Assembly: GCF_000179635.2 (NCBI RefSeq) | Contig: NC_014833.1 | Location: 3,480,001-3,512,000, forward strand | Reading direction: 5' to 3' | DNA length: 32,000 bases | DNA from: Ruminococcus albus 7 = DSM 20455 | GTDB lineage: Bacteria; Bacillota; Clostridia; Oscillospirales; Ruminococcaceae | Part shown: positions 14,770 to 29,052 of the stretch, one piece after another | Numbering within the stretch: the stretch's first letter is position 1 | Layout of the letters: every line of letters begins with the position of its first letter | Program-made: the position numbers and the translations under genes | The notes under the pieces: model-generated | Databases searched by the model: none | What the model was told of the DNA's origin: nothing | The model's input: only the letters and a program-made list of their open reading frames with translations

Positions 14770-14852
14770 CGCAAACAGATGTTTAAGATAATAAGGGAAA
14801 TTCTGCGGCAGGCGAACTGCCGTTTGATAAATTGGTAAGGAGGGCTATTTTA

Positions 14853-16064
14853 ATGGCTAAGATTCAGATGAAAACACCGCTGGTCGAAATGGACGGCGAC
14901 GAGATGACAAGGATAATCTGGCAGGAGATAAAGGACATACTGATAACACCTTATGTTGATCTCAAGTCGGATTACTACGATCTTGGACTCGTTCACAGAA
15001 ACGAGACCAACGATCAGGTAACTGTTGATTCAGCAAACGCTACCAAGAAGTACGGCGTTGCAGTAAAGTGCGCTACCATAACACCTAATGCTGCAAGAAT
15101 GACAGAGTATAATCTGAAAGAGATGTGGAAGTCCCCTAACGGCACTATCCGTGCTATGCTGGACGGCACTGTTTTCAGAACACCTATACTCGTTAAGGGA
15201 ATAACACCCTATATCCCCACATGGACAAAGCCTATCACTATCGCACGTCATGCTTACGGCGATGTTTACAAGAATGTTGAGATGAAGTGCCCCGCAGGTG
15301 CCAAGGCTGAACTGGTATGCACCGATAAGGACGGCAACGAGACCCGTGAGACTATCTACAACTTTGAGTGCGACGGCGTTATACAGGGTATGCACAACAA
15401 GTCTACCTCTATAGCATCATTTGCAAAGAGCGTTTTCAACTTCGCACTGGATACCAAGCAGGACGTTTGGTTCGCAACAAAGGATACCATATCCAAGAAA
15501 TATGACCACACATTCAAGGATATCTTCAACGAGATATTCGAGAACGAGTACAAGGCTAAGTTTGAAGCTGCAGGCATCGAGTATTTCTACACACTGATAG
15601 ACGATGCTGTTGCAAGAGTTGTACGTTCAAACGGCGGCTACATCTGGGCTTGCAAGAACTACGACGGTGACGTTATGTCCGACATGGTAGCTACAGCTTA
15701 CGGTTCACTGGCTATGATGACTTCCGTACTGGTATCGCCCGATGGCGTATACGAGTTCGAGGCTGCACACGGCACAGTTCAGAGACACTACTACAAGCAC
15801 CTGAAGGGCGAGGAGACTTCTACAAACTCTGTTGCTACACTGTTTGCATGGACAGGTGCGCTTCGCAAGAGAGGCGAGCTGGACGAGCTGCCCGAGCTGG
15901 TAAACTTTGCTGATTGTCTTGAAAAGGCAACTATCAAGACCATTGAAGACGGCATAATGACAGGTGATCTGTACCTGCTCTCCAAGCTGGAGAACAAGCA
16001 GAAGGTCAACACAGAGGACTTCCTGAAGGCTGTTGACGAAAGACTGAAGGCTATGCTCGGCTGA
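14853..16064 (+). CDS. icd: NADP-dependent isocitrate dehydrogenase (eukaryote-like homodimeric type, about 403 aa)
   Basis: The start [23 protein letters not shown] and the motifs [14 protein letters not shown] and HGTV.RHY are typical. The start is trimmed to the ATG at 14853, behind AAGGAGGG. Confidence 0.92.
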
Positions 16065-16077
16065 TCATAAAAATTCA

Positions 16078-16109
16078 AAGCGGAGAGCTTTTGCTCTCCG
16101 CTTTTTTTG
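16078..16109 (+). terminator. Intrinsic terminator after icd
   Basis: AAAGCGGAGAGC-tttt-GCTCTCCGCTTT is followed by a T-run. Confidence 0.85.
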
Positions 16110-16253
16110 CGACCATAAATCGCGCCTTATCCATTAACAAACAGCTGCCGCGGCGGATATAACGGGCTTTTCACGGGAGATACATTCCACCCGCCACCGA
16201 TGCGGCGGTGAGCCGTTTTAATATCTTATGCTTTTTACACATGATATGACACA

Positions 16254-16285
16254 TAAAAAGAGCCGCCGTTAAATCGGCGGCTCTC
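16254..16285 (-). terminator. Intrinsic terminator on the minus strand, the proposed 3' end of the repeat-containing transcript
   Basis: The minus strand reads GAGCCGCCG-atttaa-CGGCGGCTC then TTTTT (the plus-strand A-run 16255-16259). Confidence 0.7.
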
Positions 16286-16299
16286 TGACGATCCAAAAT

Positions 16300-17735
16300 T
16301 AAGCCATTGGACTTTGATCCTTTCGTAAAATAAATATATATAAGTAAATCTGAAACCTTCACCCGCACTGCAAGTAAACTCAAAACAAACGCGCAGGTAC
16401 AAATATCATATTTCCATTGGAACTGATTTCCTTTCGGTAAGAGAAAATTTTTGTCGGGAAAAAACTTAACTTCTCATCGGATTTACTACCTTTCAATATA
16501 TTTTATACGTCGTGCTCCGCATACGCGAAAATTCAAATCAAGCCATTGGTCTAAACCCTTTCGTAAAATTTTAACGCACACGCGTCATAATATCGGGATA
16601 TTCCGTTATGCTCCGGAACTAAGCTGTATTTATCTTCGGGATCACTCCTGACTATAAATTATCAACCGTTAACTCCCATTCATCAGGATCAACGTGCTGC
16701 GGACTTACTTGCCCGCCAAAGGTCGGATCATTTGTCAACTATGCCATTGGAACCTTTTCCTTTCGGTAGATTAACGCTTTCGCGCTCTTGTCGGGACGCT
16801 CCCTTTAGCTCGGAAGCTAAGCTGCTACACCCTTCGGAATCACTCCTATCTCTCAGATATTCAGCAGTCTTGTGCGCATTTTCATAATGCACCACTCCCT
16901 ATTATAAGATATGCGGCATTTCCTGCCGTACATTATTGACGTCAGTCAAACCAATTTATGCCATTGGTATCTTTCCTTTCGGTAGATTTGCGCTTTCGCG
17001 CTCTTGTCGGGACGCTCCCTTTAGCTCGGAAGCTAAGCTGCTACACCCTTCGGAATCACTCCTATCTCTCAGATATTCAGCAGTCTTGTGCGCATTTTCA
17101 TAATGCACCACTCCCTATTATAAGATATGCGGCATTTCCTGCCGTACATTATTGACGTCAGTCAAACCAATTTATGCCATTGGTATCTTTCCTTTCGGTA
17201 GATTTACGCTTTCGCGTTCTTGTCGGGATGTTCCTCTAGCTCAGGAACTAAGCTGCGTTGTACTTGGGACTCACTCCTCACTCTCAAATTCTCAGCAGTT
17301 TTACGTGCATTACCATAATGCAACACTCCCTAACCTAATATTGTTTTCGGCTTCATGCCGAAATCTGATCAATATAAAATCATGCCATCGGACTAACACC
17401 TTTCGGTAGATTTGCGCTCTCGCGCTTTCATCGGAATGCTTCCTTCCGCTCGGAAGCTAAGCTGCGTAGAACTTCGGACTCACTCCCCTCTTTTATAATT
17501 ATTATCAAACTCCCCCGTCAACAACGGAGATATTCAATTTTAAGTTCTGAGTATCCGCCTTGTATAAACGAATTAGTATAGCCATCCGCAGACCCGTTTA
17601 CTTCTTGCTTTGATAACCTCATCATTCGGAACTGTCAGCCCATACGTCTGAGTCCGTTCCCGGTCTTTCAAGATCTCCACGAGCCCTGAATACTCAAAAG
17701 GCTCTCGCTTACATCCATCGGACTCGCTCCCTTCC
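16300..17735 (-). repeat. Array of 7-8 tandem diverged repeat units with period about 110-217 bp
   Basis: Each unit is anchored on the plus strand by (G/T)CCAT(T/C)GG. These anchors lie at about 16303, 16414, 16543, 16743, 16960, 17177, 17385 and 17714. Each is followed by CCTTTCG(G)TA. Confidence 0.85.
16741..17174 (-). repeat. Near-perfect tandem duplication (217 + 216 bp) inside the array
   Basis: Units 16741-16957 and 16958-17173 are identical over about 175 nt. They differ only in the first roughly 40 nt. Confidence 0.95.
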
Positions 17736-17945
17736 GGATATACTAAGATCTGACGGAGTCTGCACCGCTTTTTTAGATGGACCCTCGTCCTGCACTGACT
17801 GCGGCACCTTTACTCATTTCCGTAAAGATCTCATTTTAAGGAACTATCAGCTTTATTACCAAGACCCGGCGATAACAACGTGCCTTTCGGCTCATCTCCG
17901 CCATCGCCTTATTGATTTTTATCTGCTTTCCTTTTCCTTGAATAT

Positions 17946-17974
17946 ACTATACCACATTTTTTGGTGTTTGTCAA
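17946..17974 (-). promoter_or_regulatory. Near-consensus sigma-A promoter pointing into the repeat array
   Basis: The minus strand reads TTGACA (17974-17969), a 17-nt spacer ending in TGG (extended -10), then TATAGT (17951-17946). Confidence 0.6.
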
Positions 17975-18052
17975 TAGTTTTTTTCAACATTTCTATATTT
18001 TTTATATTTAACTTACAAAGAAAAGTGTTACAGATGCTTCAGAAAAAACTGC

Positions 18053-18081
18053 TTGACTTATTTGGTAATTTGTAGTATAAT
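18053..18081 (+). promoter_or_regulatory. Sigma-A promoter for the DUF1292 gene
   Basis: TTGACT (18053-18058), a 17-nt spacer, then TATAAT (18076-18081). Confidence 0.7.
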
Positions 18082-18089
18082 GTAAATGT

Positions 18090-18132
18090 TGCGGCGGTCA
18101 GACGGCGGTCAGATAACGCCGCATTTGTTTTT
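18090..18132 (+). promoter_or_regulatory. Terminator-like hairpin in the 5' leader (possible attenuator)
   Basis: TGCGGCG (18090-18096) pairs with CGCCGCA (18117-18123) and is followed by TTTGTTTTT, immediately before the RBS AAGGAGG. The 5' arm is duplicated (CGGCGGTCAGA twice). Confidence 0.45.
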
Positions 18133-18147
18133 AAGGAGGTCATTAGT

Positions 18148-18480
18148 ATGGATGAGCAGATGAATGAATACACCCCCGATCTTTATGAACTGATGGACGA
18201 GGAAGGCAACAAGCAGACCTTTGAACTGCTGGACTGCATGGACTTCGAGGGCGAGAGATATTATGCGCTTACTCCTTTCTATGAGGAAGATAATGCCGAC
18301 AAGATACTTGATGAAGCTTCGCTGCTTGTTATACTGAAGGCAGAGTACGACAATGAAACAGGCGAAGAGATCCTTGCTTCTATCGAGGATGAGGAACTGT
18401 TCGACCGTGTAGGTGAAGCTTTTGAACAGCGTCTGGAAGAGATGTTCGATTTTGAAGATGACGAAGAAGATGGAGAATAA
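18148..18480 (+). CDS. DUF1292-family small acidic protein
   Basis: YELMDEEGNKQTFELLDCMDFEGERYYALTP and a very acidic C-terminus are typical of the DUF1292 (YrzB-like) family. A strong RBS is present. Confidence 0.85.
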   Translation: MDEQMNEYTPDLYELMDEEGNKQTFELLDCMDFEGERYYALTPFYEEDNADKILDEASLLVILKAEYDNETGEEILASIEDEELFDRVGEAFEQRLEEMFDFEDDEEDGE

Positions 18481-24889: not shown

Positions 24890-25756
24890 ATGGCAATAAG
24901 AAGAAATACTAAGTCAAGTCCCGGATTTATGATATTCTTTGGTTTGATATGGGTGATAATCGCACTTGTTATGTTCTATACCAGCAGCGTCACAAGAAAT
25001 ATGCATAAGCGCTGTACTGAATCCACAACCGGTGTGGTCCAGTCTGTAAGTTCGGAGCGCAGGACTAGAAAATCAGGTAAACACCGCAGAGTAACTTACT
25101 ACGTTTATAGGACAAACTATGCGTTTGATGCAGATAACAAAACCGTTTACGGTACTTCAACTCTCAGCGCATCCGAGAGACTCGAAACAGGCTCTACCCT
25201 TGCTGTAAAATACAATCCTTCAAATCCCGAAAAGGAGCATTATACAAGATACGATGAAAACGGCAAAGGCGGTATGATCGTATCAGGATTCTTTGGGGTT
25301 ATAGGACTTATCGTTGTCATCAGCGGGATCAGCCAGAAAGCAAAGTCAGGCGGTTCCGGTTTTAGCAGAGCTGCAGCAGGCACAGGCGTTTTACTGAATG
25401 GCATGAACAACAATAGCAACTACAATTACAACACCTATAACAGCAACGGTTATAATAACGGCTACAACAATAATAACTACAACAACGGTTATAACAATAA
25501 TTATAATAACGACTATAACAACAATAACTACAACAACGGTTATAACAATAATTATAATAACGACTATAACAACAATAGCTATAATAACGGCTATAACAGC
25601 AATAACTACAACAACGGTTATAACAATAGCTATAATAACGACTATAACAACAATAACTACAACAATGGTTATAACAGTAATTATAATAACGGCTATGACA
25701 ATAACAACGTATACAGCGGAGGGAACGACTACAACGACTTCAATCAGCTGAACTGA
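24890..25756 (+). CDS. DUF3592-like membrane protein with a roughly 115-aa Asn/Tyr-rich low-complexity C-terminal tail
   Basis: It has the same TM - beta domain - TM layout (YYVYRTNYAFDADNKTVYGTS...LAVKYNPSNP). This is followed by (YNNGYNNNYNNDYNNNN)n. An RBS ACGGAGGT lies upstream. Confidence 0.75.
   Translation: MAIRRNTKSSPGFMIFFGLIWVIIALVMFYTSSVTRNMHKRCTESTTGVVQSVSSERRTRKSGKHRRVTYYVYRTNYAFDADNKTVYGTSTLSASERLETGSTLAVKYNPSNPEKEHYTRYDENGKGGMIVSGFFGVIGLIVVISGISQKAKSGGSGFSRAAAGTGVLLNGMNNNSNYNYNTYNSNGYNNGYNNNNYNNGYNNNYNNDYNNNNYNNGYNNNYNNDYNNNSYNNGYNSNNYNNGYNNSYNNDYNNNNYNNGYNSNYNNGYDNNNVYSGGNDYNDFNQLN
25406..25708 (+). repeat. Coding tandem repeat (51-nt / 17-codon period) made of AAC/AAT/TAC/TAT/GGY codons
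   Basis: AACTACAACAACGGTTATAAC recurs at 25475, 25526, 25604 and 25655. The spacings are 51, 78 and 51 nt. Confidence 0.85.
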
Positions 25757-26994: not shown

Positions 26995-29052
26995 ATGAAG
27001 TTTTGTGCTAAATGCGGTGCGCAAATGGAAGACGGAATGAAGTTCTGTGGTTCTTGCGGAGCTGTAGTTTCCGACGATGCCGCAACACAGCAGCCACAGT
27101 ATGGCCAGACACAGCCGTACAACAACTATGCACAGGGTGTAGCTGCTGCACCAAAGCAGCCTAATCAGACTGTACAGAAGATAGTGGCAAAGGTTAAGAA
27201 AAACCCACTGATCGCCATTATACCCTTAGCCGCACTTGTAGCAGTGATCGTGCTGATAATCGTTCTGGTAAATGTTACTAAGTATCAGAAGATCGATGCT
27301 AAGGAACTGTTCAGATTTGAATTCGAGGGTCTGAACAGCCATGGTACAGTAACAGGTGAGCTCAATGCATATCCCGCTGATGTGTATGACGATTATGACA
27401 AGATACTTGCGATGAGCAAGGATATGAAGAATCTCACCAATGTAGTTGATGCCGAGGACGCAGAATATCTTGCGAGACTTTTAGGCACAGATAAGAAGGT
27501 ATCTCCTTATCTGTCCCTCGATCCGGCAGAGCTGAAGAAGGTATGGACCAAGGCTAAAGACCCTGCAGAAATGGTTTCCATGAGAAAAGCACTTCTGCAG
27601 ACGAATTCCAAGAAAAATTTCACTATCAAAGCCAAGTTCAACAAGGAGAAGGATCTGAAGAACGGTGACAAGATAAAGGTAACTGTTGATTATGATGAGA
27701 AGGCTCTGAAAGATGCTAAGATCAAGCTCACTAATACCGAGTTTGAGATCGAGGTCAAGAACCTTGAGGACGGCATCGAGTTCGATCCTTTCGACAGCAA
27801 GTACCTGACTGTTTCTTTCGAGGGCGTTGACGGCAGCGGTTCCATGAATATGTCTACTACTTCGGATACACCCGAGGAAATAAGATATCAGAGCGACAAC
27901 AAGTATGACCGCAACCTGAAGAATGGTGACAAGGTAACTATCACCTGCTCTACTTACGATGAGCTGAAGCCCGCAGGTGATGCTTTCTACTTTGAGAGCG
28001 ACAATAAGTTCTACATTATTAAGAGTAAGGATGCTCTCACCAAGGAGATCGAAGTAACAGGTCTTACTGAGCTGAAGGAGATCGACGTATTTGAGAACAT
28101 CAAGTTCAAGTTCGAGAGAGGTACACCTTTCCTGGATGTTTCCCGCGTTGACAATGACGATATGGACAAGGTGATCGTTGATAACGTAAGCTTCTCTGTC
28201 CTGGACGGCGAAAACCTGAAAGTAGGCGACAAGTTCAAGGTAAAAGCTTATCCTTACAGCAGCCTGAGCGAAGAAGGCTACAAGATCAAGGGTGAGCCCG
28301 ATTCTGAAGGTTACTTCATAAAGGAATTCACTGTTGATGATACTATGCCTGCATACGTTACATCAGCTAACGGCCGTGCTGCTTATGAAAGCGCCGACTT
28401 CAAGGATATGATCGCTGACGAAGAGAGCGAGCTCAAGGAACACCTCCAGGGCAAGAGCTCAAGTTGGCTGTTCTATGATACTAACGTTGAATATGATGGC
28501 GATATCGAGAAGATAGAAAGCCTGACACTGAAAGACGTTTATGTTTCTTTCACAGACAAGAACAATTCCAGAAATATCAGTGACTATGTAAACAGAATAT
28601 ACGGTGTATATGATGTTAAGGTCAAGACAGACGGCGAAGAAAAGCAATCCGCATCCTTCATCGCAGTAGTATTTGCTGACAATATTATCTGTGACAACGG
28701 AAAGTTTATCAAGCAGTCCAGCTACAGCAGCTTCTCGTTCCACTTCTATGGTTCTATGGCTGACTTCAACAAGGAGATCAGCGGCAAGGAAGGCTACACA
28801 CTTACCAAGTGCGGCAGCTCAGGTGAAGTAAAGGATAAGCCTGACGATTCCAAGCCGGAAGAAACTACCACAACCACTACCGCTAAGCCCGAAAAGGACA
28901 ACAAGGACGACAGCAAGGTAGAAAAGACTGACGATTCCAAGGCTGAGGAGAAGGACGACTCCAAGGACAAGGAAAAGGAAACCAAGAAGGAAACTGAAAA
29001 GGCAACCGAAAAGGCAGAAGATAAACCTGCTGACGAGGAAAAAGCTTCCTGA
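26995..29052 (+). CDS. Zinc-ribbon membrane-anchored protein with a large extracytoplasmic region and a K/E/D/T-rich C-terminal tail
   Basis: It has an N-terminal CxxC-x12-CxxC (MKFCAKCGAQMEDGMKFCGSCGA), a Q-rich linker and a single TM (LIAIIPLAALVAVIVLIIVLV). Repeated xLKNGDK(I/V)xV segments follow. An RBS AGGAGGA lies upstream. Confidence 0.8.
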   Translation: MKFCAKCGAQMEDGMKFCGSCGAVVSDDAATQQPQYGQTQPYNNYAQGVAAAPKQPNQTVQKIVAKVKKNPLIAIIPLAALVAVIVLIIVLVNVTKYQKIDAKELFRFEFEGLNSHGTVTGELNAYPADVYDDYDKILAMSKDMKNLTNVVDAEDAEYLARLLGTDKKVSPYLSLDPAELKKVWTKAKDPAEMVSMRKALLQTNSKKNFTIKAKFNKEKDLKNGDKIKVTVDYDEKALKDAKIKLTNTEFEIEVKNLEDGIEFDPFDSKYLTVSFEGVDGSGSMNMSTTSDTPEEIRYQSDNKYDRNLKNGDKVTITCSTYDELKPAGDAFYFESDNKFYIIKSKDALTKEIEVTGLTELKEIDVFENIKFKFERGTPFLDVSRVDNDDMDKVIVDNVSFSVLDGENLKVGDKFKVKAYPYSSLSEEGYKIKGEPDSEGYFIKEFTVDDTMPAYVTSANGRAAYESADFKDMIADEESELKEHLQGKSSSWLFYDTNVEYDGDIEKIESLTLKDVYVSFTDKNNSRNISDYVNRIYGVYDVKVKTDGEEKQSASFIAVVFADNIICDNGKFIKQSSYSSFSFHFYGSMADFNKEISGKEGYTLTKCGSSGEVKDKPDDSKPEETTTTTTAKPEKDNKDDSKVEKTDDSKAEEKDDSKDKEKETKKETEKATEKAEDKPADEEKAS

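Follow-up and report, generated by a model that had tools for sequence, protein, structure and literature searches.

What kind of RNA, if any, is formed by a tandem array of ~105-nt modules on the minus strand of the Ruminococcus albus 7 (= DSM 20455) chromosome, in which two short hairpins vary in a compensatory way while the intervening blocks stay nearly invariant? A preliminary description had taken these modules for a functional RNA domain with a possible two-state switch rather than a neutral satellite. We addressed this in a window, viz., the whole 32,000-nucleotide stretch analyzed (contig NC_014833.1, positions 3,480,001 to 3,512,000; coordinates below are those of the window). The modules appear to be the repeat unit of an undescribed, predicted ~1.7 kb transcript of rumen Ruminococcus, and most of the supposedly single-stranded invariant blocks look like ribosome-binding sites with tiny reading frames. 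Hence, the RNA probably works with ribosomes on it and not as a bare riboswitch-like fold.

The repeat modules and their hairpins

The repeat described at the outset is real. Its representative copy lies at 17062-16960 on the minus strand, and a covariance model recovers five full modules at 17492-17378, 17283-17170, 17068-16954, 16852-16737, and 16654-16536, with scores of 103-120 bits and a spacing of 208-216 nt; TRF and a second repeat search both give a 216-nt period. These correspond to module 1 (17385-17486), module 2 (17177-17277), module 3 (16960-17062), module 4 (16743-16846), and module 5 (16543-16648, the most diverged full copy). Modules 3 and 4, with their spacers, are 99% identical and represent a recent duplication, such that the window holds only four independent copies. 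All the reported hairpin variants are present, namely GCGC-GAAA-GCGC, AGCGC-GAAA-GCGTT, ACGC-GAAA-GCGT, GCGC-GAGA-GCGC, and ACGC-GTGT-GCGT for the downstream hairpin, and CTTCC/GGGAG, CTTCC/GGAAG, GTTCC/GGAAC, and TTCCG/CGGAA for the upstream one.

In module 3, the upstream hairpin H2 (17014-17033, minus strand) comprises six pairs, GCUUCC/GGGAGC, around the loop GAGCUAAA, and the downstream hairpin H3 (16990-17001, minus strand) comprises four pairs, GCGC-GAAA-GCGC. Across 68 distinct homologous modules from Ruminococcus genomes and metagenomes, compensatory changes are seen in 6 of 6 pairs of H2 and 2 of 4 pairs of H3, with the closing pair of H3 being G-C in 41 sequences and A-U in 23. Of the alignment cells, 98.4% are paired, as against 87.7% in shuffles (0 of 500 shuffles reach the observed value) and 28-53% when the partners are slid by 1-3 columns. 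Thus, both hairpins are under selection for pairing. However, the inference that the H3 loop stays GNRA was not confirmed, as across genomes it reads GAAA, GAGA, GUGU, AUGA, UUAUG, UUA, GUGAA, and others. Likewise, the alternative hairpin GGGA-gcg-UCCC (helix 52-55/59-62) is paired in 77% of cells versus 74% in shuffles, whereas H2 is 98-100% paired; hence, the proposed two-state switch is not supported. Single-sequence folds are also not unusually stable (z = -1.0 to +0.3).

A predicted promoter-to-terminator transcript next to a DUF1292 gene

The modules are internal repeats of a predicted single minus-strand transcript of ~1.69 kb (16250-17939), running from just after the -10 box to a terminator. 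The sigma-70-type promoter (17946-17974, minus strand; TTGACA-17-TG-n-TATAGT) is conserved at the same position in all 10 genome loci and in the distant loci that we numbered L040, L050, L051, L052, and L056. The intrinsic terminator (16257-16286, minus strand) is a 12-bp stem followed by a T run, and equivalent terminators end the RNA in the other loci. The transcript contains no internal promoter and no ORF longer than 16 codons behind a strong Shine-Dalgarno (SD) site. Seven short contigs from at least 4 sequence variants begin within ~10 nt of each other just downstream of the -10 box, and one of them ends 5 nt before the terminator stem; these ends coincide with both predicted ends of the RNA, though this argument rests on the type of sample from which the contigs derive.

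The 5' domain (17495-17939, minus strand) is unique and well conserved, with many compensatory-looking changes, and starts with a purine-rich UCAAGGAAAAGGAAAG. A spacer hairpin, CGGCA-GGAAA-UGCCG, lies at 16914-16928 (minus strand), with a second copy at 17130-17144; in other units and species it is replaced by unrelated sequences that still form a hairpin. These spacer hairpins were considered as internal terminators, but they are 5-bp stems without U-tracts. The 3' domain (16299-16477, minus strand) contains degenerate partial units.

The one conserved neighbor of the RNA, in every related locus that carries it, is a divergently transcribed DUF1292 gene (18148-18480, plus strand) coding for a very acidic small protein. 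At its other end, the RNA closes at its own terminator and faces a convergent icd-like gene, with no downstream gene on the minus strand. There is one locus per genome with fixed synteny. The RNA ranges from ~0.6 kb to 1.9 kb, and the copy number of the repeat varies from 2 to 6 between genomes. A pattern scan of viral contigs and BLAST searches of phages and plasmids returned no match, indicating that the element is not mobile. A covariance-model search of the whole window against Rfam 15, whose families include ROOL, GOLLD, OLE, raiA, T-box, riboswitches, and CsrB/Rsm, gave 0 matches at gathering score, and on 16000-18200 with E up to 10 the only hits were terminator-driven or chance hits far below gathering score. 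ARAGORN found 0 tRNA or tmRNA genes in the window. Literature searches for a described large RNA of Ruminococcus or for a function of DUF1292 found nothing.

Predicted translation signals in the invariant blocks

The nearly invariant blocks, which had been thought to be single-stranded elements of an RNA domain, mostly map onto translation signals. GGAGTGA is a site of SD strength, with -12.5 to -14.6 kcal/mol against the anti-SD; CTACCGAAAGG...CCAATGGCAT is an SD, a spacer, and AUG-GCN-stop; and CCGAAG...CAGCTTAG lies in a frame with wobble-type variation that closes at the TAG. Module 3 thus runs, on the minus strand, from the SD-like GGAGTGATTCC (17062-17052) through an AAG (17050-17048), an in-frame TAG (17035-17033), H2, H3, and GAAAGG (16980-16975) to ATG GCA TAA (16964-16956).

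The last of these is a two-codon minigene of the form GAAAGG-N7-CCA-AUG-GCN-stop, which meets the sequence criteria for a start-stop element, viz., an SD at functional spacing (-8.7 to -11.2 kcal/mol at 9-10 nt), a start codon, and a stop within 1-3 codons. In the window, the minigenes (all on the minus strand) are ATG GCA TGA at the end of module 1 (17380-17388), ATG GCA TAA at the end of modules 2 (17172-17180) and 3 (16956-16964), ATG GCA TAG at the end of module 4 (16739-16747), and ATG GCT TGA at the end of module 5 (16538-16546). The 3' domain has three more, namely ATG AGA AGT TAA at 16477, ATG GAA ATA TGA at 16417, and ATG GCT TAA at 16307, each following GAAAGG-N7/8-CC. Across the homologs, 67 of 67 modules read ATG GC(A/T) followed by TAA, TAG, or TGA, in five combinations. 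Over 79 CCNATG sites family-wide, 81% close within 4 codons in frame, as against 25-32% in the other two frames, and the predicted peptides differ (MA, MRS, MEI, MAR, MER, MES, MAF, and others).

Upstream of some modules is a second type of frame, ORF1, wherein GGGAG-N9-AUG opens ~10 codons. It encodes MVMHVKLLRI in unit 2 (17284-17316, minus strand; ATG to TGA, the start codon sitting in the loop of a hairpin) and MKMRTRLLNI in units 3 (17069-17101, minus strand; the stop lying 6 nt before GGAGTGA) and 4 (16853-16885, minus strand), whereas units 1 and 5 lack it. ORF1 is intact before 57 of 86 GGAGYRR-CC elements, with its stop 6 nt upstream. Its length changes are all in frame (-6, +3, +3, +6, and +9 nt), the stop is kept as TGA, TAA, or TAG, and the Leu-Leu codons change from CTG CTG to TTA TTG, CTT TTG, or CTA CTG. 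An ORF of 9-13 codons sits in the same place in distant loci with a different nucleotide sequence. A further frame in the 5' domain, ORF0 (17668-17735, minus strand), comprises the SD GGAAGGGAG, an 8-nt spacer, ATG at 17718, and 16 codons (MDVSESLLSIQGSWRS) plus TGA; the peptide and its length are conserved, with Ser4 being AGC in the R. albus clade and TCA/TCT in L050/L051.

The anti-SD duplex energies upstream of the 17 micro-ORF starts have a median of -10.5 kcal/mol, as against -9.7 for long ORFs in the window and -3.3 for all ATGs, and the SD-to-start spacing is 8-10 nt in all classes, as it is for the neighboring DUF1292 gene. Strong-SD ATGs occur at 9.5 per kb in the RNA versus 1.7 per kb in the rest of the window; all 16 in the RNA open frames of 16 codons or fewer, and 9 open frames of 4 codons or fewer. 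The in-frame pN/pS is the lowest of the three frames for each ORF (ORF0: 0.47 against 1.18 and 0.81; ORF1: 0.50 against 0.91 and 0.80; first half of ORF2: 0.24, with almost no synonymous changes in the other frames), but the contrast is modest, control regions of the module give ~0.6, and RNA-level constraint on the same bases could mimic part of it. Indeed, in ORF0 a compensatory change from GAGCC/GGCUC to GAGUC/GACUC costs a Gly-to-Asp replacement.

A proposed structured multi-micro-ORF RNA

The interpretation initially offered is therefore only partly supported: the array is not a neutral satellite and both its hairpins are selected for pairing, but neither the two-state switch nor a self-contained RNA domain, with conserved single-stranded blocks of the kind expected of a ligand-binding fold, is borne out. 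Instead, the module is one segment of a ~215-nt unit, which typically reads, 5' to 3', a variable spacer hairpin; the SD GGGAG, 9 nt, and the AUG of a ~10-codon frame; six nt after its stop, a very strong SD-like AGGAGUGAGUCC; a short frame closing at UAG at the foot of H2; the hairpins H2 and H3; and the two-codon minigene.

With moderate confidence, we propose that this is a structured multi-micro-ORF RNA of the R. albus group and relatives, bracketed by one strong promoter and one terminator, that acts with ribosomes loaded on it. In this view, 30S or 70S particles would load at the many SD sites, translate the micro-ORFs, and terminate almost at once, while the hairpins would act as intercistronic structure that insulates and stabilizes the units and sets which SD is exposed. 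The output might then be either ribosome occupancy itself, as a sink or sensor of translation capacity, or the short peptides ORF0 and ORF1. The transcript-like architecture, the covarying hairpins, the strength and spacing of the SD sites, the conservation of start, frame, and stop, and the synteny are established by the sequence comparisons; in contrast, that the RNA is transcribed as one piece, that ribosomes occupy and translate it, and what this might achieve are inferences from sequence alone. Certain features sit less easily with this proposal: the element after ORF1 has AAG where the minigene has AUG, such that its frame has no canonical start; units 1 and 5 lack ORF1; GUGAGUCC is invariant far beyond what an SD needs, and GGA/UCC could fold as a small hairpin that hides the SD; a two-codon product cannot be a functional peptide; and no precedent is known for a cellular RNA built this way.

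A more far-reaching version, which we regard as unlikely though compatible with the evidence, is that this is a chromosomally encoded "ribosome-trap" RNA, which evolved by tandem amplification to carry ~20 strong ribosome-binding sites opening only 2-16-codon frames. Its function would be to hold or cycle ribosomes (or initiator and Ala tRNAs, or release and recycling factors), and so to sense or throttle global translation capacity, perhaps together with the invariably adjacent DUF1292 protein. This would be an RNA-level regulator of a kind not described in bacteria.

If the architecture is right, this is an undescribed large RNA family in a major group of fiber-degrading rumen and gut bacteria, and an unusual one, because conserved RNA structure and conserved translation signals are interleaved in a tandem array. 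It would offer a natural system for asking what two-codon minigenes and post-termination SD sites do in cells, how tandem duplication builds large RNAs (related species hold the ~0.6 kb and the 1.7 kb forms of the same RNA), and what the widespread DUF1292/YrzB proteins do. It also cautions that, in RNA-motif discovery, invariant single-stranded blocks with covarying stems can be ribosome-binding, start, and stop signals placed between structural insulators rather than a ligand pocket.

Alternative explanations

Of the alternatives, the one that survives best, though still unlikely, is a pure structured non-coding RNA, wherein each module is an autonomous aptamer-like or switch-like domain and the short frames are incidental. 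In its favor are the strong covariation of H2 and H3, the compensatory-looking changes in the 5' domain, the conservation of GUGAGUCC beyond the needs of an SD, and the unit-specific 6-nt words after CCGAAG (TTCTAY, TACAAY, GGTGTW/GGTAAT, GTNTAT), which are kept between species while the spacers diverge. However, only two simple, isolated hairpins are supported, with no multi-stem junction, pseudoknot, or long-range helix showing covariation; the switch helix is at shuffle level; single-sequence folds are not unusually stable; and there is no downstream gene to regulate, which also speaks against a riboswitch or tandem aptamer array. Moreover, this reading does not explain why all 67 minigenes keep AUG-GCN-stop with interchanging stop codons, why SD strength and spacing equal those of real genes, or why the ORF1 length changes are all in frame.

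Slightly less likely is a protein sponge, in which ~20 RBS-like GGA/GGAG sites per RNA would titrate a protein that normally binds the ribosome-binding sites of mRNAs, in the manner of CsrB/RsmY/RsmZ, with the in-frame stops being only a safeguard. The many repeats of one GGA-containing motif with fixed flanks, (G)GAG(Y)GAGUCC or GAAAGG-N7-CC-RAUGG, in a single abundant-looking transcript, and the conservation of the motif in excess of the needs of an SD, are consistent with this. Against it, no candidate protein was identified, the DUF1292 protein being an unlikely RNA binder; GGA lies in a hairpin loop in CsrA targets but in the predicted stem here; and the conservation of AUG, the +2 GCN codon, and the stop points to the ribosome itself.

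Comparably unlikely is a micro-peptide operon, in which the products would be ORF0 (16 aa, acidic, Ser-rich) and the amplified ORF1 (10 aa, basic, ...RLLNI), and the modules would be intercistronic processing or stability elements. The conserved length and sequence of ORF0, with its Ser codon-family switch, and the ORF1 C-terminus R-L/I-L-N/K-I/F, kept from R. albus to the loci L014, L040, L050, and L051, favor this reading, and the tandem amplification of the ORF1-bearing unit resembles dosage amplification, as in the Drosophila pri/tal RNA with its repeated 11-aa ORFs. However, the most numerous and best-kept frames are 2-3 codons long and cannot give functional peptides, other ORF1-position peptides in L040, L052, and L056 are not alike, units 1 and 5 lack ORF1, and about 105 nt of conserved module per 33-nt ORF is a great deal for a spacer.

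Finally, a neutral or selfish satellite, or an array of separately transcribed small RNAs, is very unlikely despite the tandem period, the recent duplicate, and the variable copy number, as it is contradicted by the positional orthology of units across species with retention of unit-specific words and by the covariation of the hairpins, and is further disfavored by the single syntenic locus per genome, the lack of phage or plasmid matches, and the absence of internal promoters and of U-tracts at the spacer hairpins.

Comparison with known RNAs and minigenes

Large bacterial RNAs of unknown function, viz., OLE, ROOL, GOLLD, and raiA, are likewise long, conserved, promoter-to-terminator transcripts with covarying helices and a narrow phylogenetic range, ROOL also being from rumen (PMC5737381, PMC12286853). 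No sequence or structure match to any of them was found, and they have ornate multi-junction folds and no arrays of SD-AUG-stop, whereas this RNA is built from tandem units with simple hairpins and many predicted ribosome-binding sites. Two-codon minigenes and start-stop sites are already known from E. coli and axe-txe (PMC8708949; bioRxiv 10.1101/520783). The lambda bar minigenes are of the same type. These share an SD, AUG, one sense codon, and a stop, i.e., a site that loads a ribosome and releases it at once, but the known cases are single elements inside mRNAs or phage DNA. Here, 8-10 of them are conserved in one non-protein-coding transcript, with a fixed +2 Ala codon and flanking conserved RNA.

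The CsrB/RsmY/RsmZ sponge RNAs similarly carry many repeats of an SD-like GGA motif in one transcript and this RNA could also work by titration; however, its likely partner is the ribosome and not CsrA, its motifs carry start and stop codons, and GGA is not predicted to be presented in hairpin loops. Like tmRNA, it is a structured RNA with an internal ~10-codon frame, and the short frame in the module often ends Ala-Ala-stop, but there is no tRNA-like domain, and the frames have their own SD and AUG, such that entry would be by ordinary initiation and not by trans-translation. Leader-peptide attenuators and dual-function sRNAs (erm/cat leaders, RNAIII-hld, SR1/SR1P, SgrS/SgrT) also place a ~10-codon frame just upstream of conserved hairpins and combine structure with coding capacity; here, however, there is no downstream gene to attenuate, the intra-unit hairpins have no U-tract, the unit is repeated 4-6 times, and the transcript is 5-10 times longer than known dual-function sRNAs.

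Other pairings and frames

An all-against-all covariation scan of the 197-column unit alignment singled out only H2 and H3. A metagenome pattern scan also returned 19 unrelated tandem repeats that merely contain GGAGTGAGTCC. A long-range pairing of GGAGUG with CAYYCC is possible in 84% of cells, but its 5' side is invariant, there is no covariation, and the result equals the shuffles. The GAGU/GCUU pairing suggested by RNAalifold is almost invariant and hence uninformative. For spacer CUGC with module GCAG, the apparent compensatory changes are better read as synonymous Leu codons, and the pairing fails in many units. The alternative hairpin UUAGCU/AGCUAA appears in the folds of modules 3 and 4 but is not conserved where the H2 loop is GAGCGA or GAGCAU. 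A reading of CC-GAAA-GG...CC-AAU-GG as a tetraloop-receptor-like internal loop was rejected because the outer CC is not conserved, with CC, GC, UU, AA, and CU all occurring. Similarly, one long frame read through UGA was rejected, because units have two in-frame UGAs or UAAs between ORF1 and the next frame.

Genomic context and architecture of the locus

The five modules lie in a 2.08 kb gap devoid of long ORFs, between an isocitrate/isopropylmalate-dehydrogenase-family gene (14832-16064, +) and a DUF1292 gene (18148-18480, +). On the minus strand, this gap begins with a near-consensus extended promoter, TTGACA-17-TGnTATAGT (17974-17946), and ends with a 12-bp intrinsic terminator (16286-16257). 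The copy chosen as representative in the preliminary description is found on the minus strand at 17062-16960. Tandem-repeat detection with TRF gave a period of 216 nt, a repeat search recovered 4-6 copies of sub-blocks, and a covariance model recovered five full modules at the positions originally described. However, modules 3 and 4, together with their spacers, are 99% identical, and hence the window by itself offers only four independent copies. These two units (16756-17187, -) constitute a 216-nt tandem duplication specific to this strain lineage, which appears to have been collapsed in one metagenome contig (L021), while one MAG (RGIG4311) is split into two contigs (L002 and L009) inside the array; assemblies of this locus are therefore unreliable for copy number. 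Between the terminator of the RNA and the bidirectional terminator of the convergent icd-like gene (16104-16077) lie about 150 nt (16105-16250, -) with GC-rich inverted repeats (GGCGGTGAGCCG...), and a 15-mer similar to these recurs at 18090-18104, beside the DUF1292 promoter region.

Phyletic distribution and linkage to DUF1292

A degenerate pattern scan of one genome per species found the array only in Ruminococcus, namely R. albus AR67 and KH2T6, Ruminococcus sp. FC2018, and seven Ruminococcus MAGs, alongside four chance hits. BLAST comparisons showed that the whole locus, comprising the DUF1292 gene and the gap, is collinear at 68-82% identity, and searches with nhmmer and cmsearch gave 2-5 modules per genome. 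A scan of metagenomes added 16 loci of the family, one of them with 6 modules, as well as a distant relative (L028/L040). The same scan picked up, solely on account of the search pattern, an unrelated GC-rich repeated element containing GGAGTGAGTCC and flanked by inverted 'CCTGTAC(C)TCACT' motifs, which recurs in several soil-like contigs (L015, L019, L024, L026, and L032).

We then searched for homologs of the DUF1292 protein, the best of which is 95% identical and is named R. albus. Among the contigs encoding more distant homologs, five (L050, L051, L052, L056, and L057) carry diverged versions of the RNA, each divergent from DUF1292, with the same promoter in L050, L051, L052, and L056. Of these, L050, L051, and L052 also retain the 5' leader UCAAGGAAAAGGAAAG, whereas L056 has a diverged purine-rich leader (UUAAAGAAAGAGAAUAAAG). 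Three other contigs with more distant DUF1292 homologs (L053, L054, and L055) have no such RNA. Every locus that carries the RNA, including L040, has a DUF1292 (YrzB/UPF0473) gene transcribed divergently from it, with back-to-back promoters ~170 nt apart in those inspected (L057 aside). The DUF1292 protein is very acidic, and we found no paper assigning a function to it. The RNA ranges in length from ~0.6 kb (L052 and L056) to ~1.9 kb, and the full ~105-nt module is specific to the R. albus clade, where the unit has been amplified 4-6 times. Searches of Rfam 15, phages, and plasmids gave no match, and we found no paper describing the element.

Two covarying hairpins

In the model-aligned modules, the first hairpin (H2; 6 bp of the GCUUCC/GGAAGC type) is paired in 100% of cells across 35 distinct modules and in 97.8% across 68 distinct modules, with compensatory changes in 6 of 6 pairs in both sets. 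The second (H3; 4 bp, RCGC/GCGY) is paired in 100% and 99.6% of cells, respectively, with compensatory changes in 2 of 4 pairs in both sets. In the 68-module set, one H2 pair reads CG in 31, UA in 31, and UG in 6 sequences, while the H3 closing pair reads GC in 41 and AU in 23. Over the whole structure 98.4% of cells are paired in this set, as against 87.7% in shuffles (0 of 500 reach the observed value) and 28-53% when partners are slid. This confirms the preliminary description in so far as it proposed that both hairpins vary between copies in a compensatory manner, and the observation as such holds.

Three further features do not hold up. The H3 loop, described as staying GNRA in most copies, is not GNRA across genomes. 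The helix of the proposed two-state switch is 77% paired as against 74% in shuffles. The potential pairings GGA/UCC (H1) and GGAGUG/CAYYCC involve invariant bases and carry no covariation evidence either way. An all-pairs covariation scan of the 197-column unit alignment showed nothing beyond H2 and H3, and single modules do not fold with unusual stability (z between -1.0 and +0.3).

The conserved blocks between the hairpins resemble translation signals

Alignment of whole units showed that the 'spacer' upstream of each module holds GGGAG, followed by 9 nt and an ATG in the loop of a small hairpin, which opens a frame of ~10 codons (ORF1), e.g., ATG AAA ATG CGC ACA AGA CTG CTG AAT ATC TGA at 17101-17069, encoding MKMRTRLLNI. 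Across units and species this frame behaves like an ORF: the Leu-Leu codons change from CTG CTG to TTA TTG, CTT TTG, CTT CTT, or CTA CTG; the length changes are -6, +3, +3, +6, and +9 nt; and the stop is TGA, TAA, or a TAG one codon later, and lies 6 nt before GGAGTGA. An intact frame of this kind precedes 57 of 86 GGAGYRR-CC elements, and a frame of 9-13 codons sits in the same place in L040, L050, L051, L052, and L056 despite differing nucleotides (e.g., MKGIHCRLLKF, MKMHSKRILNI, and MKLFRFKMTN).

The 3' block of the module, CTACCGAAAGG-N7-CCAATGGCAT, comprises an SD-like GAAAGG followed by 9-10 nt and then ATG GCN and a stop. All 67 modules that reach this point read ATG GC(A/T) followed by TAA, TAG, or TGA, in five combinations. 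Family-wide, 81% of 79 CCNATG sites close within 4 codons in frame, as against 25-32% in the other frames, and the predicted products differ (MA, MRS, MEI, MAR, MER, MES, MAF, ME, MR, and others). The clearest form of this minigene motif is seen in the distant relative L040 (11400-11900), where the full motif AGGAGYGAGUCC-R-AUG-GCN-stop recurs seven times in ~450 nt, as consecutive copies of (A/G)GGAG-N-(G/A)AGUCC-R-AUG-(GCN/GAA)-(0-1 codon)-UAA/UGA at 55-110 nt spacing.

The 5' block of the module, AGGAGUGAGUCC-G-AAG, is the same motif with AAG in place of AUG, and defines the frame GUG AGU CCN AAG nnn nnn nCA GCU UAG. This has the same length in 57 of 66 modules and shows wobble-type variation (CCG/CCC/CCA, UAC/UAU, AAC/AAU, GGU/GGC, GUA/GUU/GUG, AUU/AUC, and UCA/UCG), and in the short forms of the RNA it closes in frame by different stops (GCU AAG UGA and GCU AAG CGA UGA). 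As it lacks a canonical start, we treat it as only a possible frame. The 5' domain holds a further frame behind AAGGAG-N8 (ORF0), MDVSESLLSIQGSWRS at 17718-17668, which is 16 codons long in most loci and is conserved as a peptide; its Ser4 is AGC in the R. albus clade and TCA/TCT in L050/L051.

The units are orthologous by position, with the 6-nt word after CCGAAG in each module (e.g., 17047-17042) being specific to the unit, viz., TTCTAY in unit 1, TACAAY in unit 2, GGTGTW or GGTAAT in unit 3, and GTNTAT in unit 4. These words are kept between species, while the spacer hairpin changes its whole sequence yet remains a hairpin. Words such as AAGUACAAU and AAGGGUAAU recur after GUGAGUCC even in the short and distant forms of the RNA (among the loci L050, L051, L052, L056, L014, and L011). 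If the AAG frame is translated, these words would be its codons 2-3.

Ribosome-binding potential and coding signal

The median anti-SD duplex energy of the 20 nt upstream of the 17 micro-ORF starts is -10.5 kcal/mol (range -8.2 to -14.6), compared to -9.7 kcal/mol for 25 long ORFs in the window and -3.3 kcal/mol for all 1151 ATGs in the window. ATGs with a strong SD occur at 9.5 per kb in the RNA and 1.7 per kb elsewhere. All 16 of those in the RNA open frames of 16 codons or fewer, and nine open frames of 4 codons or fewer, as against 6 of 105 elsewhere.

The pN/pS value for ORF0 is 0.47 in frame as against 1.18 and 0.81 in the other two frames, and that for ORF1 is 0.50 as against 0.91 and 0.80. 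For the AAG frame, the first half gave 0.24 in frame, with almost no synonymous change in the other two, and the second half gave 0.58 as against 0.76 and 2.57. This contrast is consistent but modest: two control stretches of the module give ~0.6 in all frames, and in ORF0 a compensatory hairpin change costs a Gly-to-Asp replacement, indicating that RNA and coding constraints overlap.

Indications of a single expressed transcript

No internal promoter was found in any locus, and the spacer hairpins lack U-tracts. Further, seven short metagenome contigs (L017, L035, L021, L046, L037, L033, and L029), representing at least four sequence variants, all begin within ~10 nt of each other at AAAGCAGAUAAA, 14-25 nt downstream of the -10 box and just downstream of the predicted transcription start; one of them (L021, 1425 nt) ends 5 nt before the terminator stem. 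This pattern is what transcript-derived assemblies would give and suggests an abundant RNA, although this is an inference from the contig ends alone, made without knowledge of the sample types.

Interpretation and comparison with known systems

The best-supported picture is that of a structured RNA carrying an array of micro-ORFs, in which the module is the amplified intercistronic segment comprised of a strong SD-like site, two structural hairpins, and a terminal minigene, with the ribosome as the likely partner. The reading in the preliminary description of the module as a functional RNA domain, potentially a two-state switch, is only partly supported. While the covarying structure and the conserved micro-ORF signals emerge directly from the sequence comparisons, expression, translation, and function are inferred, as is the following mechanism. 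We propose that ribosomes initiate at ORF1 and terminate 6 nt before the AGGAGUGAGUCC site, which might hold the post-termination small subunit by SD/anti-SD pairing; H2 and H3 would insulate the unit, and the minigene would then reload and release a ribosome before the next unit. The output might be either ribosome occupancy or titration, or the ORF0 and ORF1 peptides.

Of the alternatives, a pure RNA fold retains slightly more weight than the others but is unlikely; an RNA-binding-protein sponge of the CsrB type and a micro-peptide operon are both unlikely as well, to a similar degree. A neutral satellite or an array of sRNAs is very improbable.

In its inferred mode of action, this RNA would be most like known minigene or 'start-stop' elements (PMC8708949; bioRxiv 10.1101/520783) strung together; lambda bar is a further such element. 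In general standing it resembles the large orphan RNAs OLE, ROOL, GOLLD, and raiA (PMC5737381, PMC12286853), but it is a member of none of them. Searches with Rfam and ARAGORN and an examination of the context for riboswitch, attenuator, and tmRNA membership were all negative. We describe it as a previously undescribed Ruminococcus RNA family tied to DUF1292, whose mix of covarying structure and conserved micro-ORF signals has, as far as we could find, no described counterpart.

Other repeats in the window

Elsewhere in the window, imperfect tandem repeats of 27, 51, 78, and 129 nt rich in AAC/AAT/TAT codons occur at 25435-25708 (+) inside the ORF 24890-25756, presumably encoding an Asn/Tyr-rich low-complexity stretch of a protein. 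Short 12/24-nt repeats of the GAAAAGGAAACC type occur at 28930-29014 (+) inside the ORF 26995-29052, and probably encode a Lys/Glu-rich C-terminal repeat.
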